A stretch of DNA of 64,000 nt from Candidatus Omnitrophota bacterium (GTDB lineage: Bacteria; Omnitrophota; Gorgyraeia; Gygaellales; JBFMHM01): assembly GCA_040753015.1 (NCBI GenBank), contig JBFMHM010000006.1, positions 20,467 through 84,466 on the forward strand, written 5' to 3'. The position numbers and the translations under genes are program-made. The notes under the pieces were generated by a model. That model saw only the letters and a program-made list of their open reading frames with translations, ran no database searches and had not been told where the DNA came from. Positions 43,889 through 63,283 of this stretch are shown here, in pieces; position 1 is the first letter of the stretch; each line of letters starts with the position of its first letter.

Positions 43889-44581
43889 ATGCCTGGTTCT
43901 ACGACAAAAAAATTTGAGGCCTTATCAAAAATTAGCCATGCGATAACCTCAGACCTTTATATCGAGGATATTTTAAAATTAATTGTAACAATTACAGCAG
44001 AGACACTTGGTTCAAAAATTTGTTCATTAATGCTTTTAGATGATAAAGGTTATTTACAGATTCGTGCAACACAATCGGTTTCTCAAGATTATAATAAAAA
44101 ACCAGCGCTTAAAGTTGGCGAAGGTATTGCTGGAAAAGTTGCAGAGGAAAATAAACCAATTTCAATTGCTGATTTAGCTCAGTGCAATGAATATAAATAT
44201 AAAGAAATTGCCAAAAAGGAAGGGTTGGCTTCTTTACTTTGCGTGCCTTTATCGGTTAAGAAAAAAGCAATAGGTGTAATTAATCTCTATACTTCAACCC
44301 CGCATAAATTTACAAAAAGCGAGGTGCATCTTTTAACCACAGTTGCAAATCAAGCAGCACTTGTTATTGAAAATACCGAACTTATAGTTAAGACTAAAGT
44401 TATCCAGGAGGAGCTTGAATCGCGAAAGGCTATTGAGCGGGCAAAGGGTATTTTAATGAAAGATCAAAATATCTCAGAAGACGAAGCATACCGTAAAATT
44501 CAAAAATACAGCATGGATTCGCGTAAGTCAATGCGGGAAGTTGCTGAAGCAATAATTATGGCCAAAGAATTAAAAAGTTGA
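43889..44581 (+). CDS. GAF domain - ANTAR domain RNA-binding antiterminator regulator
   Basis: N-terminal GAF (~150 aa). C-terminal ANTAR helical motif ESRKAIERAKGILMKDQNISEDEAYRKIQKYSMDSRKSMREVAEAII. Confidence 0.8.
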   Translation: MPGSTTKKFEALSKISHAITSDLYIEDILKLIVTITAETLGSKICSLMLLDDKGYLQIRATQSVSQDYNKKPALKVGEGIAGKVAEENKPISIADLAQCNEYKYKEIAKKEGLASLLCVPLSVKKKAIGVINLYTSTPHKFTKSEVHLLTTVANQAALVIENTELIVKTKVIQEELESRKAIERAKGILMKDQNISEDEAYRKIQKYSMDSRKSMREVAEAIIMAKELKS

Positions 44582-44606
44582 CGCTAGTACATTTATATGG
44601 TATAAT
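44578..44606 (+). promoter_or_regulatory. strong sigma70-like promoter (extended -10)
   Basis: TTGACG (44578-44583), 17-nt spacer, TGG-TATAAT (44601-44606). It overlaps the stop codon of the GAF-ANTAR gene. Confidence 0.55.
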
Positions 44607-44651
44607 TAAATTGTAAGTAGCACAAGGATTGTGCAGTAGATTTAGCAATGA

Positions 44652-44688
44652 GGCGTGTGCCATTAACTAGGCATGCGCCTTTTTGTTT
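44652..44688 (+). terminator. intrinsic terminator / attenuator in the sigma-factor leader
   Basis: 10-bp stem GGCGTGTGCC/GGCATGCGCC (two G.U pairs), 8-nt loop, then TTTTTGTTT. Confidence 0.55.
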
Positions 44689-44752
44689 GGATAATGGAGT
44701 CCTTTTCGAGAGAAATAATCTCTTAAAAAGGATTTTTATTTTTAGGAGCCAG

Positions 44753-45262
44753 ATGGAATTCAGTTTATTGCTTAATAGGCTTTCAGCGCGTTTGAAAAAA
44801 ATTGCCAGATTTTATGGTACAAGAAGTCATTTTTTAAACAATGACGATCTCTATCAAGAAATGTGTTTACATCTTTGGAATAATTTTAAGGATGGGGTAC
44901 CTCCGGAATTTAATGATGCTTATGTTATCCGTGGGTGTGAATTTCATATTTTAAATTATTTAAGGAAGAATAGAGAAAAAGTAAAATTTGTAAGTATTGA
45001 TGAGCCCATAGATGATAATGCTAATACTATAAAAGATATGTTAGTTGATACAAAAGAACCCCTCAAACAATATGTGAATAGAAAAATAACTATGGAATAT
45101 ATTAGTAATAATGGGTTTTCTAAAATGGAAAAAGATGTTTTTGCTTTTTTGATGGAAGGGTTTACGGTTAGAGAGATTGGTAAGAAAATAGGCGTTTCGC
45201 ATGTTTATGTCATAAAATTAAAAAAGAGCTTAGTTACCAAAACAAAAACTTTGTTACTTTAG
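44753..45262 (+). CDS. ECF-type (sigma-70 family) RNA polymerase sigma factor
   Basis: Region-2-like DDLYQEMCLHLWNNF and C-terminal HTH FTVREIGKKIGVSHVYVIKLKK. Start taken at MEFSLL after an AGGAG RBS. Confidence 0.65.
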   Translation: MEFSLLLNRLSARLKKIARFYGTRSHFLNNDDLYQEMCLHLWNNFKDGVPPEFNDAYVIRGCEFHILNYLRKNREKVKFVSIDEPIDDNANTIKDMLVDTKEPLKQYVNRKITMEYISNNGFSKMEKDVFAFLMEGFTVREIGKKIGVSHVYVIKLKKSLVTKTKTLLL

Positions 45263-45372
45263 TAGCTGTAAGGATTTTTTAAAAGCACATTGATGTAATT
45301 TTAGGACCGAGACGTCCAATTTGTTGCAAAGTGTTGCAATGGGTTGGGCGTTTTTCATTCTATACATAATTT

Positions 45373-46185
45373 ATGGAGAGATATATGTTTAAAAAAATAA
45401 GATTTTCAGTTTTTATTTTTACCATTTTACTTTTGACCTTTACATTTTCTTATGCTACTCCTACAACGCATATTTGGTCGCCGTCAACCGATGTTCAGCC
45501 ATACGGTGTATTTCACTTAACCGCAGATGCTTATGTTCCAGTTGAGCGAGACAGTGCAGGGAACAGGCCTGACACAGTCACAAACTTTGGCTTAACCACA
45601 GGCATTTTACCGTTCGATAAATTTAATGCTGAAGTTGGTTTTGACCATATTGCAGGGTACGGCGCTTTAGATACTTATCCATTTTATTTTAATTGGAAGG
45701 TAGGCACACCAGAAGATGTATTTTCTAAATTTTTTCCCGCACTTGCTTTTGGTGAATATATGATTGGTACAAAACAAAAAAAAGCAACTGGTGTTGTAAG
45801 AACAGGCTACAACATTTTTTATTGGAAAGCAGCAAAGACGTTATCGATAAAGAATTTTTCTTTGGGTAGATTTTCTGCTGGGTATTATCGCGGCGATAAA
45901 GATTTACTTTTGGATGCAAATGGTAATAGCGATAACGATGGTGTACTTTTAGCCTGGGAAAGAATAATGAGCGAGATTTCTGATAAGCTTTGGGTTTGTG
46001 TAGATTATCAGGGAGGAAAAAATAGTTTTGGTGCGATGAACTATGGATTTGCTTGGAAGTTTTCTCCTAATGTAAGCGTACTATTTGGTTATGACGTACC
46101 AAATAACAGCAATCTTGCTAAAACATTTACTGTGCAATGTGATATAGACTTCGATTTGTTTAGTAAGTTTTTAAGAAAAAAATAG
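45373..46185 (+). CDS. hypothetical secreted protein, porin-like, immediately upstream of amtB
   Basis: Signal peptide FSVFIFTILLLTFTFSYA. Beta-rich, Gly/aromatic-rich body. RBS GGAGAG. Confidence 0.4.
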   Translation: MERYMFKKIRFSVFIFTILLLTFTFSYATPTTHIWSPSTDVQPYGVFHLTADAYVPVERDSAGNRPDTVTNFGLTTGILPFDKFNAEVGFDHIAGYGALDTYPFYFNWKVGTPEDVFSKFFPALAFGEYMIGTKQKKATGVVRTGYNIFYWKAAKTLSIKNFSLGRFSAGYYRGDKDLLLDANGNSDNDGVLLAWERIMSEISDKLWVCVDYQGGKNSFGAMNYGFAWKFSPNVSVLFGYDVPNNSNLAKTFTVQCDIDFDLFSKFLRKK

Positions 46186-46209
46186 AAGGATTAAAAGGAG
46201 GTAATATTT

Positions 46210-47439
46210 ATGATAAATACAGGCGATACGGCGTGGATTATGATTTCATCGGCGCTAGTTATGCTGATGACTCCGGGCTTGGCATTTTTTTATGGCGGTA
46301 TGGTTCGGCGTAAAAATATCTTAAATGTTTTGATGCAATGTTTTATTGTTTTATGTGTACTAAGTTTGCAATGGGTTTTGTTTGGATATAGTCTTTCGTT
46401 TGCGCCAAGCAACGGCTTTTGGGGTGGGTTTAGTTGGTTAGGGTTAAAAGGCGTAGGGCTTGAACCTTATGTTGATTATGCTCCGACTATTCCACATCAG
46501 CTTTTCATGGCTTTTCAGATGATGTTTGCCATTATTACACCAGCTTTAATTATTGGTGCGTTTGCAGAGAGAATGAAATTTAGCTCATTCTTAATTTTTA
46601 CAATTATTTGGGCAACATTTGTTTATGCTCCAGTTTGCCATTGGGTTTGGGGTATGGGTGGATTTTTAAGAAAATTAGGTGCGCTTGATTTTGCTGGAGG
46701 GACAGTTGTTCATATTAACGCTGGAATTGCAGCGATAGTTACGGCAATTATGATTGGAAAACGCAAAAATCTAAATGGCCATATGCCTAGTCCACATAAT
46801 CTACCTTTTGTAGTTTTAGGAACCGCACTTCTTTGGTTTGGTTGGTTTGGTTTTAATGCTGGTAGTGCTTTGGCAGCAAATGGTTTAGCGGTAAATGCAT
46901 TTGTTGTTACAAATACTGCTGCAGCAGCTGCGGGTTTAAGTTGGGCACTTTTAGAATGGATTCGTAACGGTAAGCCGACGATGTTTGGTGTTGCATCGGG
47001 TGCGGTTGCGGGATTAGTTGCAATTACTCCGGCTGCGGGTTTTGTGAGCGTAATTTCAGCAATAATTATTGGTTTGTTGGTTAGTGTATTTTGTTTTATT
47101 GCTGTTAGTTTTATTAAACCAAAACTTGGCTACGATGATTCTTTAGATGCATTTGGTGTTCACTGTGTTGGCGGAATTTGGGGGGCGCTTGCAACTGGTT
47201 TATTTGCCTCAAAGGTTGTGAATAGCGCCGGAAGTGATGGTTTATTTTTTGGCAACCCAAAGCAATTTTTCGTTCAAGCCTTAACGGTGTTAATTACAAT
47301 TGTATATACTGCAATAGTGACAGCGGTTATTTATAAAATTGTAGATGTCATATTTGGGATAAGAGTCACTGAAAAAGAAGAACTTATGGGTCTTGATTTA
47401 ACCCAACACAGAGAAAGGGCATATACGGTGTTAGAATGA
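46210..47439 (+). CDS. amtB: ammonium transporter
   Basis: Amt signature [16 protein letters not shown] and twin-His region. Confidence 0.9.
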
Positions 47440-47777
47440 AACTAATTATTGCAATTATCCAACCATACAAATTAGAAGAAGTAAAAGAGGCTCTATACAG
47501 CGCTGATATTAATCTAATTACGGTAAGCGAAGTATTAGGCCATGGCAGGCAAAAAGGTGTAACCGAAGTTTATCGCGGCCATAAAGAAACCGGTAATTTA
47601 CTTCGCAAAATTCGCCTAGAGATTACCGTAAATGAAGAATTTGTTGAGCCAACAATAAAAGCAATTATAAAAGGCGCAAAAACTGGTGAAACAGGTGATG
47701 GAAAGATCTTCGTGTTAGACTTAAAAGAATGTGTGAGGATTAGGACAGAGGAGCGCGGCCCAGTTGCTATAGGGTAA
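47436..47777 (+). CDS. glnK: nitrogen regulatory protein P-II
   Basis: [20 protein letters not shown]..., T-loop RGHKETG. 4-nt overlap with amtB. Confidence 0.9.
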
Positions 47778-47783
47778 TATAAA

Positions 47784-47817
47784 TAAAAAAGCCCCGAATC
47801 ATATCGGGGCTTTTTTA
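47784..47817. terminator. bidirectional intrinsic terminator between glnK (+) and the convergent gene (-)
   Basis: AAAAAA GCCCCGA-atcata-TCGGGGC TTTTTT. Confidence 0.8.
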
Positions 47818-47830
47818 TTTGAATTATAAA

Positions 47831-49420
47831 CTAACCTTTTAGAACTGCTTCAGCTTCTTTCCTATAAGCATCCATCACGTAAGGAATACCAGAGACTTTT
47901 GCTGCATCTTCGGTAAGAGCCATTACATCGCTTCTTGAGATTGATGGTAAGCTGAAATTACGGCTTCCTGCCATTAATTGCTGTAAGCCAACTTTAATTC
48001 TTTGGCTAAATGTGTAAATACCAACAGCGCCTAATGGGATGTCTTTTATATCTTTGCCATATTTTTCTTTTAATTCCTCATATGAAACAAAGATTTCTTC
48101 TGGTTTTGTGCCGAAGTCAGAAATAGTTTTAGGAAGCTTATTTTCCTTAATCCATGTTTCGACATTTTTGCCAACAAAGCCCGGGATCATCAAAGCTCTA
48201 CCCATACAAACTGCTTTAACGTATGGTGCGCCCATAGCAAGGACTTTAAACACATGGTCCTCTAAGGCAAAACCACCAGCAATTGCAATGTCAGGTATGC
48301 GCATTTTTTTCTTTGCTAATTTTTCGCAGAACTCATAAGTTAATGCTTGTAAGTAGAATGTAGGAATACCCCATTCTTGCATCATTCTCCATGGGCTCAT
48401 TCCAGTTCCGCCTGGTGCGCCGTCAATTGTCAAAAGGTCAATTTTAGCAATTGAGGAAAATTTGATTGCCTGTGCAAGCTCTTTCATTGAATAAGCACCG
48501 GTTTTAAGAGTGATTCTTTTAAAACCAAGATCACGTAATCTTTTGATTTCTTTCAAGAAACCTTCTTTAGAAACAAATCCTAGACGTGAATGCCTTTCAA
48601 ATTCTTTGATTGCGCCTGCTTTGAATGCTTCTTGAATTGCATGTACGCTTGGATCAGGCGTAACAATATACCCACGGCGTTGTAATTCTAGTGCGCGCTC
48701 TAATGTCTTTACCTTGATTTCACCGCCGATACATTTTGCTCCTTGTCCCCATTTTAGTTCGATTGTATCAAGCTTGTGTTTTTTACTGACATATTCAGCC
48801 ACGCCTAAACGTGTATCCTCAACATTCATTTGTACTAAAATTTCGCCATAACCTTGGTGGAATTTTTTGTATGTATTGATACGGCGGTCCATTTCAGGTG
48901 ATTTGGCAATTTTTCCTTTTGAATCAAGCTCGAGCCCTGGGTCAATGCCGCAGACATTTTCTCCGCATACTAAAGTAACGCCGGATATTGCAGCACCAAC
49001 TGCAAAATGCTCCCAATTTTTACGGGCAATTTCTGTTGAGCCTAAAGCGCCTGTAAAAATAGGTACTTTCATTTTTACTTTTTGGTTCCATCCATATTCA
49101 GTTTCCGTATCCACATCAGGAAACTTAGTTGTGTCTGGGTCACCCTTTACGCCTTTTGGAAGGCCTTTTGCGCCTTGGGCATAACCTTGGATATTAAGAT
49201 GTGAATAATCAACTGGATAATCTTTGTCTGCTCCGGCAGTCATTTCGCCGAATGGGCCAGGATAGATTACTTCTCTTCCTCTAAATGAGGATTTAAATAC
49301 TTCGCAGTTTCCTACGCAATTTTCAACGCATCTTGAGCATAGGCCTGAGGAAGGAACAACATTTTTTGAGCGGTTGAATGTTCTTGTTGCATCATTTCCG
49401 CCCGGGCATCGTAAATTCAT
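47831..49420 (-). CDS. FMN-dependent glutamate-synthase-domain-2-like protein (GltB-related) with N-terminal Cys cluster
   Basis: N-terminal CSRCVENCVGNCEV Fe-S motif. FMN/TIM-barrel region with GGTGMSP and IAGGF, homologous to the GltB FMN domain. RBS GGAGG. Confidence 0.7.
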   Translation of the reverse strand: MNLRCPGGNDATRTFNRSKNVVPSSGLCSRCVENCVGNCEVFKSSFRGREVIYPGPFGEMTAGADKDYPVDYSHLNIQGYAQGAKGLPKGVKGDPDTTKFPDVDTETEYGWNQKVKMKVPIFTGALGSTEIARKNWEHFAVGAAISGVTLVCGENVCGIDPGLELDSKGKIAKSPEMDRRINTYKKFHQGYGEILVQMNVEDTRLGVAEYVSKKHKLDTIELKWGQGAKCIGGEIKVKTLERALELQRRGYIVTPDPSVHAIQEAFKAGAIKEFERHSRLGFVSKEGFLKEIKRLRDLGFKRITLKTGAYSMKELAQAIKFSSIAKIDLLTIDGAPGGTGMSPWRMMQEWGIPTFYLQALTYEFCEKLAKKKMRIPDIAIAGGFALEDHVFKVLAMGAPYVKAVCMGRALMIPGFVGKNVETWIKENKLPKTISDFGTKPEEIFVSYEELKEKYGKDIKDIPLGAVGIYTFSQRIKVGLQQLMAGSRNFSLPSISRSDVMALTEDAAKVSGIPYVMDAYRKEAEAVLKG

Positions 49421-49696
49421 TTTTAACCTCCAATTTTTAAGACAAAAATATTACCTTCGACATTTTGACAGCTTTGTCTTGTTATCGATATGTGTACAGC
49501 ACTACTTTGTGCTGGTGGGTATATTTAACATTGCCTACAAATTATGCAAAAAATGCTCAATAAGTAGGCGATTAATGAAAAGTATAGAATAAATTTTTGA
49601 TTTTGTAAAGTTTTTTTTAATTTTGTTACCAACTAGGTAAAATTATTACTTTTATAATTAGTGCCTGAAAAATAAGCACACTGAAAAATAATGAAC

Positions 49697-49731
49697 AGGG
49701 GTGTTCTTTTTATAAGAATACCTCTTTTTTT
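49697..49731 (+). terminator. intrinsic terminator / attenuator in the glnN leader
   Basis: Stem 49700-49708 GGTGTTCTT pairs with 49714-49722 AAGAATACC (one G.U). 5-nt loop, then a T-run. Lies ~45 nt upstream of the glnN RBS. Confidence 0.5.
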
Positions 49732-49777
49732 ATTTGGAGGTTATGGTAAAATATTTAATTATAAATTAGGAGGTTAT

Positions 49778-51970
49778 ATGTGCGTAAGGCAAGAAGCTCT
49801 ATTCAATATTAAACCAACGGAATTCCCTAAAAAAGAAGATTTCAAAAAAGTATCCAGCTATTTTGGCGAAAATACATTTAGCTTAGATACGATGAAAAAA
49901 TACATTTCCTCAGAAACTTTTAAGGCATTTAAGTCATGGATGCAGGAAGGCAAGATTATTACAATTGATCAGGCAAACGAAATTGCTAATGCAATGAAAG
50001 AGTGGGCGACATCAAAAGGGGCTACTTATTACACGCATTGGTTTCAGCCAATGACTGGTCTAACAGCAGAAAAACACGATAGCTTTATTTCAATCACTGG
50101 CCCGGGAAAAGTTATTGAGAAATTTTCTGGTTCAAAATTAATTCAAGGTGAGCCGGATGCAAGCTCTTTTCCTTCGGGCGGCATTCGGGCAACATTTGAA
50201 GCAAGAGGTTATACTGCATGGGATCCAACGAGTGCAGCATTTATCATTGAGAGCAAGTTGGGAAAAACTCTTTGTATTCCCACAATCTTTATTTCTTATC
50301 ACGGTGATGCCTTAGACAAAAAACTCCCACTTTTAAGATCTGATGAAGCCTTAAATAAGGCGGCAGTTAATTTCTTAAAACTTTTTGGCCATCAAGATGT
50401 AAAAAAAGTTTATTCAACTTGTGGGCCAGAGCAAGAATATTTCTTGATTGATAAAAATTACTATAATTTACGGCAAGATTTATTGTTAACTGGGCGTACG
50501 CTTGCTGGAGCACCTTCGCCTAAAGGCCAGCAGCTTGAAGATCAATATTTTGGCACCATTAAAGAACGCGTTCTTAACTTTATGTTTGAGGTAGCAGAAG
50601 AGGCCTATAAGCTGGGTATTCCAATTACAACCCGTCACAACGAAGTTGCCCCACATCAATATGAATTTGCGCCAATTTTTGAAGAATCAAATATTGCTGC
50701 AGACCATAACCAGCTTCTAATGGAATTAATGAAAAAAATTGCTATTCGCCACAATCTTATTTGTTTATTACATGAGAAGCCATTTGCCGGAGTTAATGGT
50801 AGTGGTAAACATTTAAATTGGTCGCTCGCCGACGATAAATGCAACAATTTATTAAACCCTGGCGAAACGCCCGAAGATAATTTACAATTCTTAGCAGTCC
50901 TCGCGGCAGTTCTGCGTGCAGTCTATTTACATTCTGATTTGCTACGTGCAAGCGTGGCTATTGCTGGAAATGAACATAGGCTTGGTGCAAATGAAGCGCC
51001 TCCCGCAATAATTAGTGTATTTTTAGGCGAACAGCTAACGACAATTTTAGAAATGATCGAAAAAGGTGCTAAGAAAAAAGTCTCTAAACACGATATTATT
51101 GATTTAGGTATTTCACGTTTACCGAAATTTAATAAAGATACAACCGATAGGAACCGCACATCGCCATTTGCCTTTACTGGGGCAAAGTTTGAATTTAGGG
51201 CAGTTGGTTCATCACAAAATATTTCTACACCTATTACAATCATTAATACTATAATTGCTGAAAGCCTTGATTATATCTCAGAAAAAATTGCTAAAGAGGC
51301 AAAACATGGTGATTTTAATACAGTTGTATTAAAAGTTATTGCTCAGATTATTAAGGAAAGCAAAGATATTTGTTTTGAAGGCAATAATTATTCAGGGGAG
51401 TGGGTGAAAGAAGCAAAAAAACGCGGCCTTCCTAATATTGCTTCAACTATTGAGGCACTTGAGGCATTTGTTGAAGAAAAGAATATCAAATTATTTGAAA
51501 AATATAAGGTTTTTTCGAAGCAAGAAATTGTTGCCCGTTATCATATTTGGGCACATATGTATGATTTAACCTTGGAAATCGAGGCAAATACCCTAAATGA
51601 AATGGTTAATGCAAGCGTTGTGCCATTTGGGCTTCAGTATCAAGAGCTTTTGGCAGAGAATCTTTCAAGGATAGCTCATCTTAAAAAAGATGCAAAGTTG
51701 ACTATTGATAAGAAAGCATTTGATGATTTAAAAGAACATCTTTCAGAAGTAGTTTCAAAAATTTATTATGTTAGAAAGAATACTAAAGAAATGGTTAAGC
51801 TCTTAGAAAGAGCATCAAAGCTTGACGCTGAAAAGCGTGCAGAAGTTTATTTCAAAGAACTAAAACCATTGATGGAGCATATTCGTAGGCATGTTGATGA
51901 CTTAGAAAAAGTTGTTTCTGATGAGCATTGGGATTTACCGAAATATAGAGAGATGTTATTTATTAAATAA
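49778..51970 (+). CDS. glnN: glutamine synthetase type III
   Basis: ~730-aa GS with GSIII-specific N- and C-terminal extensions. Start at 49778 follows a GGAGG RBS. The ORF-track start 49691 would include the leader terminator. Confidence 0.85.
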   Translation: MCVRQEALFNIKPTEFPKKEDFKKVSSYFGENTFSLDTMKKYISSETFKAFKSWMQEGKIITIDQANEIANAMKEWATSKGATYYTHWFQPMTGLTAEKHDSFISITGPGKVIEKFSGSKLIQGEPDASSFPSGGIRATFEARGYTAWDPTSAAFIIESKLGKTLCIPTIFISYHGDALDKKLPLLRSDEALNKAAVNFLKLFGHQDVKKVYSTCGPEQEYFLIDKNYYNLRQDLLLTGRTLAGAPSPKGQQLEDQYFGTIKERVLNFMFEVAEEAYKLGIPITTRHNEVAPHQYEFAPIFEESNIAADHNQLLMELMKKIAIRHNLICLLHEKPFAGVNGSGKHLNWSLADDKCNNLLNPGETPEDNLQFLAVLAAVLRAVYLHSDLLRASVAIAGNEHRLGANEAPPAIISVFLGEQLTTILEMIEKGAKKKVSKHDIIDLGISRLPKFNKDTTDRNRTSPFAFTGAKFEFRAVGSSQNISTPITIINTIIAESLDYISEKIAKEAKHGDFNTVVLKVIAQIIKESKDICFEGNNYSGEWVKEAKKRGLPNIASTIEALEAFVEEKNIKLFEKYKVFSKQEIVARYHIWAHMYDLTLEIEANTLNEMVNASVVPFGLQYQELLAENLSRIAHLKKDAKLTIDKKAFDDLKEHLSEVVSKIYYVRKNTKEMVKLLERASKLDAEKRAEVYFKELKPLMEHIRRHVDDLEKVVSDEHWDLPKYREMLFIK

Positions 51971-51983
51971 AAAGCTTATCTTT

Positions 51984-52026
51984 AAAAGCGCCCCGATGCG
52001 TATATTACTATCGGGGCGCTTTTTTA
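51984..52026 (+). terminator. intrinsic terminator after glnN
   Basis: 11-bp stem AGCGCCCCGAT/ATCGGGGCGCT, 12-nt loop, TTTTTT. Confidence 0.8.
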
Positions 52027-52054
52027 TTCCATGTATTGTAAATATGTTCTAGGC

Positions 52055-52088
52055 ATACTCGGAAAAAGTCTTGACTTTTTCCGAGTAT
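52055..52088. promoter_or_regulatory. perfect 16-2-16 palindrome overlapping a TTGACT -35-like hexamer (candidate operator)
   Basis: ATACTCGGAAAAAGTC tt GACTTTTTCCGAGTAT. A TAGACT -10-like hexamer lies 16 nt downstream of TTGACT. It is 17 nt upstream of the 52105 start. Confidence 0.5.
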
Positions 52089-52104
52089 AGTGTAGACTTT
52101 AAGT

Positions 52105-53334
52105 ATGGATAAAAGGGTTCTCTATAAAGATTTATGGGATGAATTATCTAAAGATAAGTCTTTGATTATGTTGGCTGGCCCGCGCCAGGCGGGTAAAACT
52201 ACTTTTGCCAAAAGTATTGTAGCAAAAGATTTTTTAGATACTATTTATCTCAATTGGGATATTTCTGCAGATAAAAAACGGCTTATTGAAGACCCCGAAT
52301 TTTTTTCTAAGGAATCTCGTAGTAGTGTTTCTTCGCGCCCACTGGTTATTCTTGATGAAATTCATAAATATCGCGATTGGAAAAATTACCTTAAAGGTAT
52401 TTACGATCAATTTGCCACTAACTATCAGTTTCTTGTTACAGGTAGCGGCCGGTTGGAATTTTCTCGTAAAGCTGGTGACTCACTTGCTGGCAGGTTTCTT
52501 AAATTTCATATTTTTCCTTTAACACTTGGCGAGCTTTTTTATAAGAGAAGAGAGTTAAAAGACTTTATTGGTAATCCATTGAAAGAGTTTGAAGGCCATT
52601 CAGTTAAAACAACAGCTAAGGCCTTCCATCTACTATGGGAATTAAGCGGTTTTCCAGAACCTTTTCTAAAAGGGAAGAAGGCATTTTGGTCTGCTTGGTC
52701 TAGCACATATGGCCAACAAATAGTTAGGGATGATTTAAGGACGATTGCAGATATACGTAATCTTGACATGATTGAGACGCTTTTTGCGCTTGTGCCGGGA
52801 AGAGTGGGAAGCCCCATGTCGATGAATAATTTGGCAGGTGATCTTCAGGTAGCTTTTGATACTGTGAAAAATTGGTTATTACTCTTTGATTCATTTTATC
52901 TTACATTTCGTCTTTCTCCTTGGACATCGAAGCTGTCAAGAAGTATTCTTAAAGAGAAAAAAATATATCTTTTTAATTTCCCAGTTATCGAAGATGAAGG
53001 CAGCCGGTTTGAAAACTTGGTTGCTTTAGAATTATTCAGGGCAATTGAGACTTGGAATGACCGCGGTTTTGGTAATTTTACGTTGCACTATCTTAGAAAT
53101 AAAGATAAGCAGGAAGTCGATTTCCTTTTAGCAAAAAATAACCACCCGTTTCTTTTAATTGAAACAAAACTTTCCGATGAAACTTCTGCTTCAAATTTAT
53201 TGTTTTTTCAGAATTTTTTTAATATTCCTGCTGTACAACTTGTTAAAAAAGAAGGAGTAAAAAAAGTTTTTAGAAATGGCTTAAATAATGTTTTGGTCGT
53301 AACTGCGCACATGTGGCTTGCTGCGTTGCCTTAA
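52105..53334 (+). CDS. AAA+ ATPase, COG1373-like (DUF4143-like C-terminal region)
   Basis: Walker A LAGPRQAGKTT, Walker B VILDEIH, ~410 aa. Confidence 0.65.
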   Translation: MDKRVLYKDLWDELSKDKSLIMLAGPRQAGKTTFAKSIVAKDFLDTIYLNWDISADKKRLIEDPEFFSKESRSSVSSRPLVILDEIHKYRDWKNYLKGIYDQFATNYQFLVTGSGRLEFSRKAGDSLAGRFLKFHIFPLTLGELFYKRRELKDFIGNPLKEFEGHSVKTTAKAFHLLWELSGFPEPFLKGKKAFWSAWSSTYGQQIVRDDLRTIADIRNLDMIETLFALVPGRVGSPMSMNNLAGDLQVAFDTVKNWLLLFDSFYLTFRLSPWTSKLSRSILKEKKIYLFNFPVIEDEGSRFENLVALELFRAIETWNDRGFGNFTLHYLRNKDKQEVDFLLAKNNHPFLLIETKLSDETSASNLLFFQNFFNIPAVQLVKKEGVKKVFRNGLNNVLVVTAHMWLAALP

Positions 53335-53348
53335 TTAGTCAAAAGTAG

Positions 53349-53386
53349 CGCTCCGATTGTGCTTTGCTCATCGGGGGCTCTTTTTA
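53349..53386 (+). terminator. weak intrinsic terminator candidate
   Basis: 7-bp stem CTCCGAT/ATCGGGG (one U.G) followed by CTCTTTTT. Confidence 0.35.
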
Positions 53387-53482
53387 AGCCGAATAAAAAT
53401 ATTTTTAAATTTAGTTATGACTAGATTATGCATATATGATTTATTAACATATATCATTAGGATAATTGGAGCGTGAATTAAA

Positions 53483-55117
53483 GTGAAAGATAATTTGTTG
53501 AGAATAGGTCTTGCCCAAATAAATTCTTGCGTTGGGGATTTAGAAGGTAACCGGAAAAAAATCTTTGAATTTGTTGAAAAAGCAAAAGAAAATGCTTGCG
53601 ATTTAGTTGTGTTCCCCGAGCTTGCTATTACGGGCTATCCTCCTGAAGACCTGCTTTTAAAAAAACATTTCATCTCGGATAATATAAAAACTCTAAACTC
53701 TTTGGTTAAAGAAATTAAGCAAATTACAGCTGTTATTGGTTTCGTTGATCAAAATAAAAATCATATTTTTAACGCTGCAGCAGTAATTACCGATGGAAAA
53801 TTAAAGGGTATTTATCATAAAAAAAACCTTCCAAATTATAGTGTATTTGACGAAAAAAGATATTTTGAATCTGGTTTTAAAAACCCATTATTTAAGGTTG
53901 GTAAATTTATTTGTGCAGTTAATATCTGTGAAGACATTTGGGAAGAGGGCGGAGTCTATGCGCAGCAGAAAAAATCTGGAGCAAATTTATTGATCAATAT
54001 TTCCGCCTCACCCTATTATATCGATAAGATTAATTTAAGGAAAAAAATGTTATCCCGCCGTGCAAAAGATCTGAATGACTTTGTTTGTTATTGCAATTTA
54101 GTTGGCGGACAAGATGAGCTTGTTTTCGACGGTGGAAGTTTTATTTTTGATAAAAAAGGGAAATTGATTGCTTTCGGTAAGCAATTTCAGGAAGATTTAT
54201 TAATCGCCGATTTAGGAATTGTAGGGGCGGCCCCAAGTGGCCGCCCGAAGAATATCGGACAGCCACGCCAAATGTCGCGATTAGAGGAAGTTTATAGCGC
54301 CTTAGTTTTAGGGACAAGAGATTACATAACCAAAAATGGATTTAAAAAAGTAGTTATTGGCTTAAGCGGAGGAATTGATTCTGCTTTAGTTGTAGCAATT
54401 GCCGTAGATGCGCTTGGCCGTGAAAATGTAGTCGGTGTTTCTATGCCATCACAATATACATCTCTTGGAACAAAAACCGATGCCGAAATTTTAGCAAAAA
54501 ACCTCAAGATAAAATTTTTAACTATCCCTATCGACGGGATATTTAATACTTACTTAGATAATCTTCAAAAAGAATTTTCTGGTAGAGCAAAAGATACAAC
54601 TGAGGAAAATTTGCAGGCGCGTATTCGCGGCAATATCTTGATGTCTTTATCGAATAAATTTGGCTGGCTTGTTTTAACAACTGGCAATAAAAGTGAAACG
54701 TCTGTTGGATATTGCACGTTGTATGGAGATATGGCAGGCGGATTTGCTGTGATAAAAGATGTTTTTAAGACGCTTGTCTATGATTTGGCGTATTTTAGAA
54801 ACGAAAAAGATAAAATTATTCCGGAAACTATTTTTACGCGATCTCCTTCCGCAGAATTAAAAGAAAATCAGAGGGATCAAGACAGCCTTCCAGATTATGA
54901 AGTTTTAGACCATATCTTAAAGGGCTATATTGAGGAAGACAAAAGTATTGAACAAATAATTGCAAAAAAATTTGACGCAGATATAGTTAAAAAAGTTATT
55001 AAATTAGTGGATACTAATGAATATAAGCGCCGTCAAGCGCCGCCAGGCATAAAGATTACACCAAAAGCATTCGGTAAAGACCGCCGTTTACCAATTACTA
55101 ATAAATATAATAAATAA
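53483..55117 (+). CDS. nadE: glutamine-dependent NAD+ synthetase (nitrilase domain + NAD synthetase domain)
   Basis: GTG start. N-terminal CN-hydrolase, C-terminal PP-loop GLSGGIDSALV. Contains a GC hairpin insert at 54225-54246. Confidence 0.9.
   Translation: MKDNLLRIGLAQINSCVGDLEGNRKKIFEFVEKAKENACDLVVFPELAITGYPPEDLLLKKHFISDNIKTLNSLVKEIKQITAVIGFVDQNKNHIFNAAAVITDGKLKGIYHKKNLPNYSVFDEKRYFESGFKNPLFKVGKFICAVNICEDIWEEGGVYAQQKKSGANLLINISASPYYIDKINLRKKMLSRRAKDLNDFVCYCNLVGGQDELVFDGGSFIFDKKGKLIAFGKQFQEDLLIADLGIVGAAPSGRPKNIGQPRQMSRLEEVYSALVLGTRDYITKNGFKKVVIGLSGGIDSALVVAIAVDALGRENVVGVSMPSQYTSLGTKTDAEILAKNLKIKFLTIPIDGIFNTYLDNLQKEFSGRAKDTTEENLQARIRGNILMSLSNKFGWLVLTTGNKSETSVGYCTLYGDMAGGFAVIKDVFKTLVYDLAYFRNEKDKIIPETIFTRSPSAELKENQRDQDSLPDYEVLDHILKGYIEEDKSIEQIIAKKFDADIVKKVIKLVDTNEYKRRQAPPGIKITPKAFGKDRRLPITNKYNK
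54225..54246. repeat. GC hairpin GGGCGGCC-ccaagt-GGCCGCCC in frame within nadE
   Basis: 8-6-8 perfect inverted repeat in an otherwise AT-rich gene, translated as GAAPSGRPK. Sits in the inter-domain linker. Confidence 0.5.
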
Positions 55118-55291
55118 TTTTGTTACCATATTATATTAATTTTTACTTATAATAATAGGCACGCGGTAGTGCTTATTATATAGAAATTTAACAAAGACGT
55201 TCGTTGTGGTATATAAAGCGCCATGATGAACGTTTTTTTATTGGGAACAATTGATTAAAAGTTAGGCAGAGTTTGCTAAAAAATTATACAT

Positions 55292-55507
55292 ATGGATAAA
55301 AAGATTATTGATGAATATTTTTTAATATTTTCGAAGGGCGAAATTTATTCAAAGGCAATTTTAGATACAGAAAGACTTTTGATTGAGAAGGCGCTTGAAT
55401 ATTCATCAGGTAATCAGATTATTGCAGCAAAGATTCTAGGAATGAATAGAAACACGCTAAGAACGAAAATTAAAAAATTGAATATTGATATAAAGGTATA
55501 TAAATGA
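55292..55507 (+). CDS. Fis-type helix-turn-helix DNA-binding protein (71 aa)
   Basis: C-terminal GNQIIAAKILGMNRNTLRTKIKKLNI matches the Fis/NtrC-type HTH. Overlaps the gltB start by 4 nt. Confidence 0.55.
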   Translation: MDKKIIDEYFLIFSKGEIYSKAILDTERLLIEKALEYSSGNQIIAAKILGMNRNTLRTKIKKLNIDIKVYK

Positions 55508-58500
55508 TCGATAGCCGTAAAGAAAAATTATCCGCCGTAGGCCCGTGGCTTCGCCGCGAGGCGAGCGAGACCTCGTCACTGTATGACGGGGAACAATTTG
55601 GTTTATATGACCGGCGTTTTGAGCACGATGCCTGTGGTGTAGGTTTTGTATGCGACATTAAAGGAAGGAAGTCGCACGATATTATACAAAAAGGCATTGA
55701 GGTTTTAAGAAGGCTGAGCCATCGCGGGGCAGTTGGCGCAGACCCAAAAACCGGTGATGGCGCAGGAATTTTAATCCAAATTCCCGATGAATTTTTAAGA
55801 AAAGAATGTGCTAAATTAAAGATCTCACTGCCTGAATTTGGTAATTATGGCGTAGGTCTGGTATTTTTGCCACAAGATGACAAAGAGCGTAAGTTTTGCC
55901 TCGATGCTTTTGAAAAAATTATTAAGCAAGAAAAAGAAAAATTATTAGGGTTTCGGGAAATCGAAGTTGATAGTTCGATTATCGGTAAAACCGCACAGAA
56001 TACTCAACCAAAAATTAGTCAAATCTTTATTGAGAAGTCAGAGAATGTCAAAAAAGGGTTAGATTTTGAAAGAAAACTTTATCTAATCCGTAAGCAAGTT
56101 GAGAATATAATTTGTGCCTCAACTATTCGACAAAAAGATTTTTTCTATATTACAAATATTTCTTCTCAAACGCTTATCTATAAAGGTCTTTTGATGCCTG
56201 ATCAAGTCGATGGTTTTTTCCCAGAGCTTAAAGATGAATCTTTAACGAGCTCTTTGTGTTTAGTGCATTCTCGTTATAGTACAAATACGTTTCCGACCTG
56301 GGATTTAGCGCAGCCATTTCGATACCTCGCTCATAACGGAGAGATAAATACTTTAAGGGGAAATATTAATTGGATGCAGGCACGAGAGGGCCTTCTAAAG
56401 AGTATTTTTTTTAATAAAGATATAGAAAAATTAAAGCCTGTAATTGTGCCTGGTGGCAGTGACTCTGCGGTAATTGATAATGTTTTTGAATTATTGTTTC
56501 TTTCAGGAAGGTCTCTTAGTCATGTTATGTCAATGCTTATTCCAAGCGCATGGGAGCAGAATAAGGAATTAAACAGCGAATTAAAAAATTTCTATAAATA
56601 TCATGTTTGCTTTATGGAGCCGTGGGATGGGCCAGCTGCAATTGCTTTTACAGATGGAACAAATATTGGCGCTGTATTAGATAGAAACGGCCTTAGGCCT
56701 TGCCGTTACATTGTTACAAAAGATGATTTTGTTGTAATGGCTTCAGAGGTAGGTGTTTTAGATATCGAGCCAAAAAATATTAAACTTTCCGGGCGCCTTA
56801 ACCCAGGAAAGATGTTTTATATTGATACAAAAAAAGGCCGTATTATTGGTGATGATGAAATTAAAAAAGAACTTTCCGCTAAAAAGCCTTATGGAAAATG
56901 GTTAAAAGAAAATTTAGTTAGCTTAGACGATGTGAAAGGTGTGAAGATAAAAGAAAAACAACTAAAAGATACGTTGACATTATTAAAAGCATTTGGTTAT
57001 TCTAAAGAAGATTTAAAAATGATTATTTCTCCTATGGTTCAAAATTCCCAAGAGCCTATTGGTTCAATGGGCAATGATACGCCTTTGGCAGTTTTATCAA
57101 AAAATCCACAGCTACTTTATAGCTATTTTAAACAGTTGTTTGCCCAAGTTACAAATCCAGCAATTGACCCGATAAGAGAAGAAATAGTTATGACTTTAGA
57201 GAGTTTTGTTGGTAGCCAAAAAAATATTTTGGAAGAAACTGATAAACATTGCCATAAGCTATATGTAAAAAATCCAATACTCGAAAATAGAGAGCTAGAA
57301 AAAATAAAGAAAATTAAGCAAAAAGGATTTAAGGCAAAGGTGATATCGATTTTATTCAAAGTAGATGATAAAAAAGATTTTAGGCGGAGATTAGATGAGA
57401 TTTGTAAAGAGGCAGAGCTTGCGATAAAAGACGGCTATTCATTTATTATTTTAAGTGATAAAGGGGTTGCAAGCGAAATGGCGGCATTGCCAGCTTTGCT
57501 TGCAGCGGGCACTATTCATCAATATTTAGTAAAAAAGGCGCTGCGTACGCAAATTGGAATTATTCTTGAAACTGCCGAACCGCGTGAAGTGCACCACTTT
57601 GCGCTTTTATTCGGTTATGGTGTTGATTGCATTAATCCATATTTATCTTATGATGCAATTGAATATTTAATCTCCACCCAGGGCGGATCCGCCTTTGGCG
57701 GAAAAGAGAAAGAGCTTGATTTAGATTACAAAACTGCAATTAAAAATTATCGTAAGGCATTGTCAAAAGGAATTTTAAAAATCCTTTCTAAAATGGGAAT
57801 TTCTACTCTACATAGCTATCGTGGAGCTCAGGTATTTGAGGCAATTGGCATAGCTAATGAAGTTATTGAGAAGAGTTTTTCTGGCACACCGTCGAGAATT
57901 GGTGGTGTGGGATTTGTTGAAATTGAAAAAGAAACATTGCTGCGCCATAGCGAGGCATTTCCGAAAAACAAAAATTTAGAAACCCCGTATCTAGCAATTG
58001 GGGGGTTATATCAATGGAAAAAAGGTGGTGAATTTCATCTTTGGAACCCTGAAACAATAGCAAGCCTTCAAGATGCTGTTAGGAAAAATAATTATTCTAA
58101 ATTTAAAGAGTTCTCAAATTTAATAAATGACCAGTCAAATAATCCTACAACTTTACGGTCGTTATTAAAATTTTCCGCCAAAGGCGAGACCTCGCCGCAA
58201 AGCGGCGGGAAAAAAATAATACCAATACCGCTTGATCAAGTTGAACCAAAAGAAAGTATTTTTAAGCGGTTTGCTACTGGTGCAATGAGTTTTGGTTCTA
58301 TTTCAAAAGGGGCTCATGAGACTCTTGCGTTGGCAATGAATAAAATTGGCGCAAAGTCAAATACTGGCGAAGGTGGGGAAGACCCAGCAAGATTTATCCA
58401 GCTTCCTAACGGAGATTCTTTAAGAAGTGCGATTAAGCAAGTTGCTTCGGGTAGATTTGGCGTAACCACAAATTATCTCGTTAACGCTGATGAGCTGCAA

Positions 58501-60168
58501 ATAAAAATTGCTCAAGGCGCAAAACCCGGCGAAGGCGGCCAGCTCCCTGGACATAAGGTGAGTGAAATTATTGCGCGTACCCGTTACACAACCCCGGGTG
58601 TTACTTTAATTTCACCGCCACCGCATCATGATATTTATTCAATCGAAGATTTAGCACAATTAATTTTTGATTTAAAAAATGTAAATCCAAAGGCCCGCAT
58701 AAGCGTTAAATTAGTTTCAGAAATTGGCGTAGGAACTGTTGCTGCAGGTGTTGCCAAAGGCCATGCGGATATGATTTTAATCTCTGGAGGTGATGGCGGC
58801 ACAGGTGCTTCCCCTTTAAGTTCAATTAAACATGCTGGCCTTCCCTGGGAACTTGGAATTTCAGAAACACATCAAACGCTTGTTTTAAATGACCTGCGCA
58901 GTCGCGTTAGATTGCAAACTGATGGCCAGATGCGCACCGGTCGCGACGTTGCAATTGCTGCAATTTTAGGCGCGGAAGAATACGGATTTTGTACTGCAGC
59001 GTTAATTATAATGGGTTGCGTTATGCTTAGGCACTGCCATTTAAATAATTGTTCAGTTGGTGTTGCAACGCAAGATGAAATTTTGCAAAAACGCTTTTTA
59101 GGCAGGCCAGATTATGTGATAAATTATTTTAATTTTGTTGTGCAAGAACTGCGGGAAATTATGGCTAGCCTCGGGGTAAGAAATATCAATGAAATGATTG
59201 GTAATACTGAACTTTTAGAAGTCAATAAACAAATTATTCCTTGGAAGGCAAAAAATATTGACTACTCACGGATTCTCTATAAGCCAGAGGTTGATAAAGC
59301 TGTTGGCAAATATTGTATGATTAGCCAAGATCACGCAATAGATAATGTATTAGATAAAAAATTAATTGAATTTTCCAAAGATGCGTTAGAAAGTGCTGTA
59401 ACAGTTAACGCCGAATTTAAAATTAATAATACTAACCGCACAACTGGTGCGATGTTAAGCGGTGAAGTTTGCAAGCGGTTTGGTGAAGATGCGCTGCCAG
59501 AAGGTACGATTAATTTTAAATTTAAAGGAGTTGCTGGGCAAAGTTTTGGCGCATTTTTGGCTAAAGGGATTAATTTTGAGCTGGAGGGCCAGGCTAATGA
59601 TTATGTTGGAAAAGGAATTTCTGGCGGAAAGATAATAATTTATCCGGATAAAAAAACTGATTATGATTCATCTAATAATGTCATTATTGGTAACACTTGT
59701 TTTTACGGAGCAATTAAGGGGGAGGCTTATATAAAAGGAGTTGCCGGGGAAAGATTCTGTATTAGGAATTCTGGTTTACTTACAGTTGTTGAAGGTGTGG
59801 GCGATCATGGGTGTGAATATATGACAGGTGGTAGGGTAATTATCTTAGGAGAAACCGGAAGAAATTTTGGCGCTGGTATGTCGGGCGGCATTGCCTATAT
59901 ATATGACGAAGATAAAAATTTCGCAAGTAGATGTAATTTAGAAATGGTTGAATTAGATAAGCCGAATGAGCTAGATAGAGATACATTACATAATTTAATT
60001 TTTAATCATTACAAATATACAAAAAGTACAAAAGCAAAATTTATTTTAGATAATTTTAAACAAGAATTAAAAAAATTTATTAAAGTTATGCCGTTAGAAT
60101 ACAAGCGTATCCTAGAAGCAAGAGAACAAGAAGAAAAGTTAGGTTTAGGGGAACCTTCAGATGGGTGA
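55504..60168 (+). CDS. gltB: glutamate synthase large subunit
   Basis: N-terminal amidotransferase Cys in EHDACGVGFV, central FMN domain, C-terminal GXXDGG repeats. 1554 aa. Confidence 0.95.
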   Translation: MIDSRKEKLSAVGPWLRREASETSSLYDGEQFGLYDRRFEHDACGVGFVCDIKGRKSHDIIQKGIEVLRRLSHRGAVGADPKTGDGAGILIQIPDEFLRKECAKLKISLPEFGNYGVGLVFLPQDDKERKFCLDAFEKIIKQEKEKLLGFREIEVDSSIIGKTAQNTQPKISQIFIEKSENVKKGLDFERKLYLIRKQVENIICASTIRQKDFFYITNISSQTLIYKGLLMPDQVDGFFPELKDESLTSSLCLVHSRYSTNTFPTWDLAQPFRYLAHNGEINTLRGNINWMQAREGLLKSIFFNKDIEKLKPVIVPGGSDSAVIDNVFELLFLSGRSLSHVMSMLIPSAWEQNKELNSELKNFYKYHVCFMEPWDGPAAIAFTDGTNIGAVLDRNGLRPCRYIVTKDDFVVMASEVGVLDIEPKNIKLSGRLNPGKMFYIDTKKGRIIGDDEIKKELSAKKPYGKWLKENLVSLDDVKGVKIKEKQLKDTLTLLKAFGYSKEDLKMIISPMVQNSQEPIGSMGNDTPLAVLSKNPQLLYSYFKQLFAQVTNPAIDPIREEIVMTLESFVGSQKNILEETDKHCHKLYVKNPILENRELEKIKKIKQKGFKAKVISILFKVDDKKDFRRRLDEICKEAELAIKDGYSFIILSDKGVASEMAALPALLAAGTIHQYLVKKALRTQIGIILETAEPREVHHFALLFGYGVDCINPYLSYDAIEYLISTQGGSAFGGKEKELDLDYKTAIKNYRKALSKGILKILSKMGISTLHSYRGAQVFEAIGIANEVIEKSFSGTPSRIGGVGFVEIEKETLLRHSEAFPKNKNLETPYLAIGGLYQWKKGGEFHLWNPETIASLQDAVRKNNYSKFKEFSNLINDQSNNPTTLRSLLKFSAKGETSPQSGGKKIIPIPLDQVEPKESIFKRFATGAMSFGSISKGAHETLALAMNKIGAKSNTGEGGEDPARFIQLPNGDSLRSAIKQVASGRFGVTTNYLVNADELQIKIAQGAKPGEGGQLPGHKVSEIIARTRYTTPGVTLISPPPHHDIYSIEDLAQLIFDLKNVNPKARISVKLVSEIGVGTVAAGVAKGHADMILISGGDGGTGASPLSSIKHAGLPWELGISETHQTLVLNDLRSRVRLQTDGQMRTGRDVAIAAILGAEEYGFCTAALIIMGCVMLRHCHLNNCSVGVATQDEILQKRFLGRPDYVINYFNFVVQELREIMASLGVRNINEMIGNTELLEVNKQIIPWKAKNIDYSRILYKPEVDKAVGKYCMISQDHAIDNVLDKKLIEFSKDALESAVTVNAEFKINNTNRTTGAMLSGEVCKRFGEDALPEGTINFKFKGVAGQSFGAFLAKGINFELEGQANDYVGKGISGGKIIIYPDKKTDYDSSNNVIIGNTCFYGAIKGEAYIKGVAGERFCIRNSGLLTVVEGVGDHGCEYMTGGRVIILGETGRNFGAGMSGGIAYIYDEDKNFASRCNLEMVELDKPNELDRDTLHNLIFNHYKYTKSTKAKFILDNFKQELKKFIKVMPLEYKRILEAREQEEKLGLGEPSDG
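58175..58217. repeat. GC-rich palindromic element, family A, in frame within gltB
   Basis: CCGCC-AAA-GGCGAG-ac-CTCGCC-gcaaagc-GGCGG-GAAAAAAAT, translated as AKGETSPQSGGKK. Shares a 22-nt identical core with the birA copy. Confidence 0.7.
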
Positions 60169-60185
60169 AAGGAATTCAAAAATCT

Positions 60186-60220
60186 CTGCCAAAGGCAGAT
60201 CCGCCTTAGGCGGAAAAAAT
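60186..60220. repeat. GC-rich double-hairpin element, family B, intergenic gltB-gltD
   Basis: CTGCC-aaa-GGCAG-GATCCGCC-tta-GGCGG-AAAAAAT. Confidence 0.65.
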
Positions 60221-60242
60221 CAAAAATCTAGAATAAAATAAT

Positions 60243-63283
<3,041 letters not shown>

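Follow-up and report, generated by a model that had tools for sequence, protein, structure and literature searches.

A probable ANTAR-type attenuator with a disrupted first hairpin in the glnN leader of a Candidatus Omnitrophota bacterium

Locus and gene start

The DNA analysed was a 64,000-nucleotide (nt) stretch from an uncultured Candidatus Omnitrophota bacterium (the window); loci of relatives are given L-numbers (L001 etc.). A nitrogen-assimilation cluster is encoded within 43889-63283, and the element studied is the leader of its glnN gene (49778-51970, + strand), which codes for a type III glutamine synthetase (Pfam GSIII_N, E 3.5e-75; Gln-synt_C-ter, E 3e-39; Gln-synt_C, E 1.5e-19). 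The leader lies in a 357-bp intergenic region (49421-49777) that separates glnN from a divergent Glu_synthase-like gene (47831-49420, - strand). An earlier interpretation of this region, made from the letters alone (the sequence-only reading), proposed an attenuator controlled by an ANTAR protein. The analysis below points to a switch that attenuates transcription in the manner of ANTAR antitermination, probably in a derived state that has lost the first of the two hairpins of such leaders.

The glnN start was assigned to ATG 49778-49780 (+ strand), because a ribosome-binding site, AGGAGG (49768-49773), precedes it and the relatives align from residue 1 of the product. The ATG at 49691, given by the open reading frame (ORF) track, is in the same frame as glnN, has no ribosome-binding site and is unconserved in relatives; it is not taken as the gene start, as the sequence-only reading had also concluded. 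The closest GlnN proteins are ~80% identical and come from Candidatus Omnitrophota metagenome-assembled genomes (MAGs).

Terminator and competing hairpin

The leader carries an intrinsic terminator on the + strand, a G+C-containing stem-loop at 49697-49725 (5' arm 49697-49708) with the U-run directly after it (T-run 49726-49731). The stem consists of 12 pairs, including two G-U and four G-C, and closes a loop of 5; from 49726 on, the sequence reads TTTTTTATTT. The terminator alone folds at -15.2 kcal/mol. This agrees with the 9-12-bp stem and T-run reported at 49697-49731 in the sequence-only reading, which had named RNA folding and covariation in relatives as checks. Folding of the leader from 49659 to 49735 gave -21.3 kcal/mol (z = -4.39); none of 200 dinucleotide shuffles was equally stable, and the stability of this fold exceeds chance. 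Over 11 orthologous glnN leaders (window and ten relatives) the terminator helix was 96.6% paired and three of its pairs were changed on both sides, one of them only in the window (T49702-A49720 for C-G). On this alignment the helix is kept through compensatory changes.

A second, small hairpin, GAAC-AGGGGT-GTTC (49693-49706, + strand), is formed by a sequence (GAACAGGGGTGTTC) whose inverted repeat is perfect in the window. Its energy is -4.3 kcal/mol as 5 bp with a tetraloop (GAACA-GGGG-TGTTC) and -2.8 kcal/mol as 4 bp with a hexaloop. ANTAR target RNAs have been defined by two hairpins of at least 3 bp, P1 and P2, with hexaloops that carry A at position 1 and G at position 4 (A1, G4), P2 being exclusive with the terminator (PMC3369931). 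In the hexaloop AGGGGT, A49697 is at position 1 and G49700 at position 4, and the hairpin is best read in its 4-bp form, as the P2 of such a target; it matches the P2 of a covariance model, R1, derived from relatives (see below). Ten bases, 49697-49706, are common to P2 (loop and 3' arm) and to the 5' arm of the terminator, so the two folds are mutually exclusive. The alternative hairpin of the sequence-only reading is therefore present and shares these bases with the terminator, but the anti-terminator is the hexaloop form GAAC-AGGGGU-GUUC and not the GGGG tetraloop.

No Rfam family reached its gathering threshold anywhere in the window. At permissive E-values, 49300-49900 returned chance-level small RNA (sRNA) matches only; STnc240, Ysr197 and BTnc060 were discarded as terminator-shaped chance matches, far below threshold. 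A usable ANTAR-target model seems to be missing from Rfam, because a canonical leader of the window (55100-55270) also returned nothing relevant.

Leaders of relatives and covariance model R1

The unit repeated in relatives consists of P1 (typically GCAC-ANNGNN-GTGC), a linker of 8-25 nt and P2 (GAAC-ANNGNC-GTTC). This dual-hexaloop unit, with A1 and G4, recurs within nitrogen loci, with as many as three or four copies in one locus; copies precede amtB-glnB and glnN, and others lie past glnN, ahead of a Fis-like gene and gltB. In every leader found in relatives, the loop and 3' arm of P2 (…GGCGTTCA) are the 5' arm of a strong terminator that is followed by a T-run. Orthologous glnN leaders with the canonical dual hairpin were found in L003, L005, L017, L023, L081, L086, L087, L093, L096 and L106.

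A strict scan for two A..G.. hexaloop hairpins and a T-run found none of the nitrogen leaders of the window. Every one of them departs from the strict pattern in one feature or more, and the search was therefore made with a relaxed scan and with a covariance model. Model R1 was seeded with 12 leaders of relatives, with no window sequence, and applied to 61 loci of relatives at a cut-off of E <= 0.1. It returned 35 matches, every one on the glnN-sense strand and 23 of them outside the seed. The model helices were 98.6% paired, against 18-47% with the partners slid, and double changes were seen in three of the four pairs of P1.

When R1 was run on the window with filters off (128 kb searched), the top three matches were three nitrogen-gene leaders in the correct orientation: the gltB leader (55158-55203, + strand, E 4e-5), the leader of the Glu_synthase-like gene (49513-49465, - strand, E 0.013) and the glnN leader (49655-49707, + strand, E 0.12).

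The P1 region of the glnN leader

At the P1 position a single, non-canonical hairpin can form (49661-49679, + strand, -3.6 kcal/mol): GTGC, an 11-nt loop (CTGAAAAATAA) and GCAC. It lacks a hexaloop, and nothing in relatives corresponds to it. Compared with the relatives' GCAC-ANNGNN-GTGC, a remnant of P1 was recognised on the + strand, comprising the 5' arm GCAC (49676-49679) and the hexaloop ACTGAA (49680-49685), which has A1 and G4. The hexaloop is followed by AAAT instead of the 3' arm GTGC, and GTGC stands instead upstream, at 49661-49664. The loop thus fits, but P1 does not close, and all four of its pairs are broken in the R1 alignment. Only P2 remains of the two hairpins (stems of at least 3 bp, variable linker) that define the target, and only P2 offers a closed A1/G4 hexaloop.

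The loop sequence CTGAAAAATAA is one copy of a tandem direct repeat with a period of 16 (49665-49691, + strand; copies at 49665-49675 and 49681-49691), and these are its only two exact copies in the 64 kb. It was considered as a dispersed protein-binding motif and rejected, as one-mismatch copies are not enriched in the window (nine found, eight expected). It is a local tandem duplication, which coincides with the disrupted stretch of P1 and is missing from the leader of every relative. The duplication noted just upstream in the sequence-only reading is accordingly real, but it sits in the disrupted P1 and is not a conserved element. A one-step rearrangement from a canonical P1 to the P1 region of the window was sought and none could be derived.

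P1-less glnN leaders were also found in six relatives (L007, L010, L083, L085, L090 and L095). In these, P2 starts 8 nt after the upstream promoter-like motif, a gap that leaves no room for P1. The P2 and terminator sequences of the window are most like those of this group. One of its members, L007, has an insertion of ~45 nt inside the P2 of the glnN leader (5775-5900; GAACAGGGGCGTCC[...]GGACGGGCGTTC), and the insert forms a long hairpin of its own.

Promoter-like elements

A bipartite promoter-like motif, GTTACCA-N14-TTACTTTTA, lies upstream of the glnN leader structures (49625-49654, + strand), with one mismatch to the consensus GTTACCA-N14-TTACTTGTA. The consensus spans 30 bp with fixed spacing and was read as a -35 element GTTACC, a 16-nt spacer and a -10 element TACTTG. 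The window contains three matches only (45233-45262, 49625-49654 and 55122-55151), each just before an ANTAR-type leader. Among the Omnitrophota loci (L001-L106) there were 40 matches, all on the + (sense) strand, against none in 1 Mb of non-Omnitrophota loci. The motif was present within 70 nt upstream of 26 of 36 R1 matches, some of the others having a sigma-70-type promoter at the equivalent place, and P1 usually begins 5-30 nt past it. It looks like a dedicated nitrogen-regulon promoter, and at 49625-49654 it would place the start of transcription at about 49660 (49659-49661). Inspection by eye ruled out TGGTAAAAT as a sigma-54 element, as no GC stands 10 nt after the GG.

A second promoter-like element, TATGGTAAAAT, lies past the terminator (49742-49752, + strand), 15 nt before the ribosome-binding site. 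It has the form of a sigma-70-type extended -10 (TRTGn and TAAAAT), with TGn directly before TAnAAT and at a suitable distance to the gene. Five such sites were counted on both strands of the window, two of them intergenic, and at 44578-44606 a -10 of this kind lies 17 bp past a TTGACG -35. The TATGGTAAAAT motif was found at the same relative place in 12 of the 17 relatives that have P2 in the glnN leader, and also in 13 relatives without P2, in which the attenuator is eroded. Five relatives have an intact dual hairpin and no downstream promoter motif (L086, L087, L093, L096 and L106). On this comparison glnN probably has an attenuator-independent promoter at 49742-49752, and part of its transcription would bypass the switch. 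A glnN start past 49731 had been named in the sequence-only reading as the result that would speak against attenuation; the conserved TATGGTAAAAT comes close to this, while the upstream motif at 49625-49654 argues that both promoters exist.

The sequence GGAGGTTAT is directly repeated at 49736-49744 and 49769-49777, the first copy standing just before the -10 element. ATG 49743, after this copy, opens a mini-ORF of 8 codons (stop TAG 49767-49769), which is probably incidental because the spacing to the ATG is only 2 nt.

Sister leaders in the window

The glnN leader is one of at least three or four ANTAR-type leaders in the nitrogen cluster. A canonical sister attenuator (55122-55240, + strand), which gave the best R1 match, stands before the Fis-like ORF and gltBD. 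It is made up of the promoter motif (55122-55151), P1 (55152-55179), P2 (55190-55201) and a terminator (55193-55236) with a T-run, and folds at -34.4 kcal/mol (z -6.7).

Another sister attenuator (45233-45355, + strand; fold z -3.9) precedes orf45373-amtB-glnB. Its parts are the promoter motif (45233-45262), a weak P1 (GCAC-ATTGAT-GT, 45285-45296), P2 (GGAC-CGAGAC-GTCC, 45304-45317) and a terminator (45313-45350) followed by TTTTT. It was not among the R1 matches in the window at E <= 10.

The match to the leader of the Glu_synthase-like gene is an ANTAR-like dual hairpin that lies in the glnN intergenic region, on its other strand (49465-49513, - strand), and leads into that gene. Its P1, CAGCAC-AAAGTA-GTGCTG, folds as predicted, and its P2 is GAC-AAAGCT-GTC. 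The pair is not followed by a canonical terminator; P2 lies within a longer hairpin, and the U-run is 6 nt away.

The GAF-ANTAR regulator and the sigma factor

The upstream GAF-ANTAR gene mentioned in the sequence-only reading was found at 43889-44581 (+ strand). It codes for a one-component regulator with the Pfam domains GAF_2 (E 6.8e-24) and ANTAR (E 1.5e-23), so that an ANTAR protein is encoded in the same genome as the leaders, and is presumed to be the antiterminator protein. Synteny of the gene with the cluster extends to 11 relatives, among them L005, L007-L010, L012, L092, L094 and L108. The ANTAR domain matches an Enterococcus-type response regulator (6wsh), Rv1626 (1s8n) and NasR (4akk). 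The GAF domain is closest to that of PtsP/EI-Ntr (PDB 3trc, 3ci6; NCBIfam PRK11061, E 9.6e-20) and to that of NifA (E 3.4e-15). The NifA GAF domain binds 2-oxoglutarate. The EI-Ntr GAF domain binds glutamine (PMC4848567). Because these closest domains are sensors of nitrogen status, the ligand is most likely a nitrogen-status signal; glutamine and/or 2-oxoglutarate is the best guess. GAF-ANTAR proteins were uncharacterised in 2012 (PMC3369931), a 2025 review lists GAF architectures with no studied example (PMC12591593), and literature searches found no characterised GAF-ANTAR protein after 2012.

The gene next to the regulator codes for a small sigma-70-family factor with regions 2 and 4 (44753-45262, + strand). 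Its start was set at ATG 44753, not 44648, because the resulting 169 amino acids fit the 168-170 amino acids of the homologues. The protein is identical to an Omnitrophota MAG protein at NCBI, and it is a candidate for reading the GTTACCA motif. The gene is kept beside the GAF-ANTAR gene in relatives. It is preceded by a TTGACG-17-TATAAT promoter and an attenuator-like leader (44578-44752). This leader has a P1-like hairpin (GCAC-AAGGATT-GTGC, 44620-44634), a terminator with a T-run (AGGCGTGTGCC...GGCATGCGCCT, 44651-44684) and a second hairpin with a T-run near 44700-44745.

Other genes of the cluster

The first gene of the amtB-glnB operon codes for a 270-amino-acid protein (orf45373, 45373-46185, + strand) with no Pfam or NCBIfam match; its position is kept in relatives with 42-54% identity (L007, L017, L088, L091, L095, L097 and L106), and it may act as a sigma partner or as a membrane sensor. 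It is followed by amtB (46210-47439, + strand) and glnB (P-II; 47436-47777, + strand). The minus-strand Glu_synthase-like gene parts glnB from glnN only in this window, not in relatives.

Downstream of glnN lie an AAA_14/DUF4143 ATPase gene (52105-53334, + strand) and nadE (53483-55117, + strand). The ATPase gene has strong terminator-like hairpins on both sides (about 51985-52025 and 53350-53385); it looks like an insertion into the nitrogen cluster, because in relatives glnN is directly followed by gltB or the gltB leader. An ORF for a 71-amino-acid Fis-type helix-turn-helix (HTH) protein (55292-55507, + strand; HTH_8, E 4.4e-12) lies between the terminator of the gltB leader and gltB, whose start it overlaps, and at least 22 Omnitrophota loci have it in the same position. 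The cluster ends with gltB and gltD (55504-61682, + strand) and pyrG (61685-63283, + strand).

Proposed mechanism and alternatives

The structures with their mutual exclusivity and conservation, the compensatory changes, the promoter-like motifs and the syntenic position of the ANTAR gene were observed directly, and the glnN leader is probably a switch of the ANTAR type. In the model proposed, transcription would begin at the nitrogen-regulon promoter (49625-49654), near 49660. By default the nascent RNA would form the strong terminator (49697-49725 and the U-run), and RNA polymerase would stop near 49731. When active, the GAF-ANTAR protein (43889-44581) would bind and stabilise the weak hexaloop hairpin P2 (49693-49706), which would then occupy the 5' arm of the terminator and let the polymerase read through into glnN. 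The GAF domain would most likely report nitrogen status, through glutamine and/or 2-oxoglutarate. Predicted parts of this model are the binding of the protein, the nature and sign of its signal, the points where transcription starts and the activity of the two promoters. As P1 is disrupted, the protein would have to act through P2 alone or with reduced efficiency. The housekeeping-type extended -10 past the terminator (49742-49752) would probably give basal, attenuator-independent glnN expression.

Several points weigh against this model. The glnN leader of the window has no canonical P1, and deletion of P1 abolished the EutV-dependent induction of eutP (PMC3369931). The leader alone scores only 14.8 bits with R1 (E = 0.12). 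The P2 stem never covaries; GAAC/GTTC is almost invariant, so that the stem is supported by conservation rather than by covariation. The conserved promoter-like element past the terminator could carry most of the transcription of glnN. Finally, an assembly error in the P1 region is possible, and no second assembly is on record. Look-ups of the exact proteins, for GlnN (with both possible starts) and the sigma factor, returned no contig on record, and scans of genomes and metagenomes for closer relatives, which could show the odd P1 to be shared or an assembly error, gave GlnN of at most ~82% identity over the full length. The GlnN of L054 is 89% identical and lacks its 5' end.

The ANTAR-controlled attenuator of the sequence-only reading thus holds at the level of the family, through the canonical leaders of relatives, the synteny and the compensatory changes, and holds less well for this copy, with its missing P1 and weak R1 match. 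Function through P2 only is plausible by analogy, because GnfR of Geobacter binds via a single conserved ANTAR site (PMC2995071), though induction of eutP needs P1. The leader is most likely a P1-defective descendant that still acts as an ANTAR attenuator; it is not a canonical member, because it failed the strict dual-hairpin definition.

It is also conceivable, if rather unlikely, that the attenuator has decayed: the terminator would then still stop transcripts that come in from upstream, but only as a constitutive insulator, the loss of P1 would preclude rescue by an ANTAR protein, and glnN would be transcribed solely from the promoter at 49742-49752. Such decay would fit the disrupted P1 of the window, the requirement for P1 in the eutP system (PMC3369931) and the conservation of the proximal promoter motif, which persists where the attenuator is visibly eroded (L002, L004, L006, L012 and L013). 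It sits poorly with the 5' arm of P2 (GAACA), which is dispensable for termination and is still kept in the window and in the six P2-only relatives, with an upstream promoter-like motif that is intact but for one mismatch, with the compensatory change that preserved the terminator stem, and with the binding of GnfR to a single such element (PMC2995071).

A mechanism at the level of DNA appears very improbable. The palindrome GAACA-N4-TGTTC would here be an operator bound by a regulator of the downstream promoter, and its hairpin potential would be incidental. Its perfect symmetry in the window, its place ~50 bp upstream of the -10 at 49747 and the presence of genes for a Fis-type HTH protein and a sigma factor in the cluster would suit an operator, but the repeat of the relatives (GAACA...CGTTC) is imperfect as DNA, yet exact as a 4-bp stem with a hexaloop A..G.C; a complementary arm and a T-run always follow the repeat, and all 35 of 35 copies are on the sense strand. 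Least probable of all is another RNA mechanism, be it a metabolite riboswitch (e.g. for glutamine), a T-box or a leader peptide from the in-frame ATG 49691. All these mechanisms use a terminator that has an alternative fold, and the ATG does open a reading frame through the structure. Against this, no Rfam family (glutamine riboswitch glnA RNA, T-box, other cis-regulators) reaches threshold in the window, the leader itself matching only sRNAs at chance level, the ~35 nt 5' of P2 are unstructured and too small for an aptamer, and ATG 49691 has neither a ribosome-binding site nor conservation in relatives.

The glnN leader may be part of a two-layer nitrogen circuit in Omnitrophota that is described nowhere else, a suggestion that we put forward tentatively. 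The circuit may cover amtB-glnB, glnN, the Fis-like gene with gltBD, and the Glu_synthase-like gene. In the first layer, the sigma factor of the cluster (44753-45262) may read GTTACCA-N14-TTACTTGTA; in the second, each transcript may have to pass an attenuator opened by the GAF-ANTAR protein, as a sensor of glutamine or 2-oxoglutarate. With the sigma gene itself behind an attenuator-like leader, the two layers may form a feed-forward loop. The glnN leaders of one clade, that of the window included, may have shed P1 and gained a bypass promoter, securing basal glutamine synthesis.

These results would extend ANTAR antitermination of core nitrogen assimilation to an uncultured phylum, and they offer a compact, sequence-defined test system for the GAF-ANTAR class of proteins, with target RNAs graded from the canonical dual hairpin to P2 only. 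The likeness of the GAF domain to the glutamine-binding GAF of EI-Ntr suggests a concrete candidate ligand. The conserved GTTACCA promoter-like motif could help to define nitrogen regulons in Omnitrophota genomes, and annotation gains two revised starts, of glnN (49778 for 49691) and of the sigma gene (44753 for 44648).

Comparison with known systems

ANTAR control before glutamine synthetase genes is not new, as it was already predicted in 2012. Ramesh et al. predicted multi-operon ANTAR regulons before genes for P-II, the ammonium transporter, glutamate synthase and glutamine synthetase (PMC3369931), the last with 25 entries in their supplementary Table S2, and a commentary on that work makes the same point (PMC3369936). 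[quoted passage not shown] Nothing was found in the literature on ANTAR targets in Omnitrophota, and the phylum is in no earlier survey found. The more novel material lies beyond the leader, in the promoter motif, the sigma factor of the cluster and the layered circuit that they suggest.

At the level of the family, the Omnitrophota leaders share with the EutV/eut system of Enterococcus faecalis, and with the predicted nitrogen regulons of e.g. Desulfotomaculum acetoxidans (PMC3369931), the short A1/G4 hexaloop hairpins, a second hairpin exclusive with the terminator, and an ANTAR protein encoded nearby. With the predicted regulons they also share the presence of several leaders, before genes for P-II, the ammonium transporter, glutamate synthase and glutamine synthetase. 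They differ from EutV/eut in the linker (5-12 nt in eut, 8-25 nt in the Omnitrophota relatives), in the sensor of the regulator (a receiver domain there, GAF here) and in the dedicated promoter-like motif that precedes the leaders, the glnN leader being followed by a second promoter. The glnN copy of the window differs further in having no canonical P1.

NasR/nasF of Klebsiella oxytoca and AmiR/amiE of Pseudomonas aeruginosa are likewise one-component or partner-controlled ANTAR antiterminators that act on a leader terminator before nitrogen-source genes. The parallel that the sequence-only reading drew with them is not new, given the entries for glutamine synthetase in the table of Ramesh et al. 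Control of nasF is layered, an NtrC/sigma-54 promoter being combined with antitermination by NasR (PMC12591593); here a special promoter motif is combined with an ANTAR leader. The sensor is a NIT domain (nitrate) in NasR and the partner AmiC in the case of AmiR, whereas a GAF domain is present here. The targets there belong to pathways for specific nitrogen sources (catabolic or assimilatory), and here to the core set of glutamine synthetase/GOGAT, AmtB and P-II.

GnfK/GnfR of Geobacter sulfurreducens (PMC2995071) is similar in that an ANTAR regulator of nitrogen genes forms part of a cascade that has a second layer of regulation. The targets of GnfR, a phosphorylated response regulator, are mainly nif genes, and the relation is one of analogy, not orthology. 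Its element, CAGGCAANGGCGCC, has a 3-bp stem and an A..G hexaloop, overlaps a terminator and is bound by the protein, and in this it resembles the P2-only glnN leader of the window.

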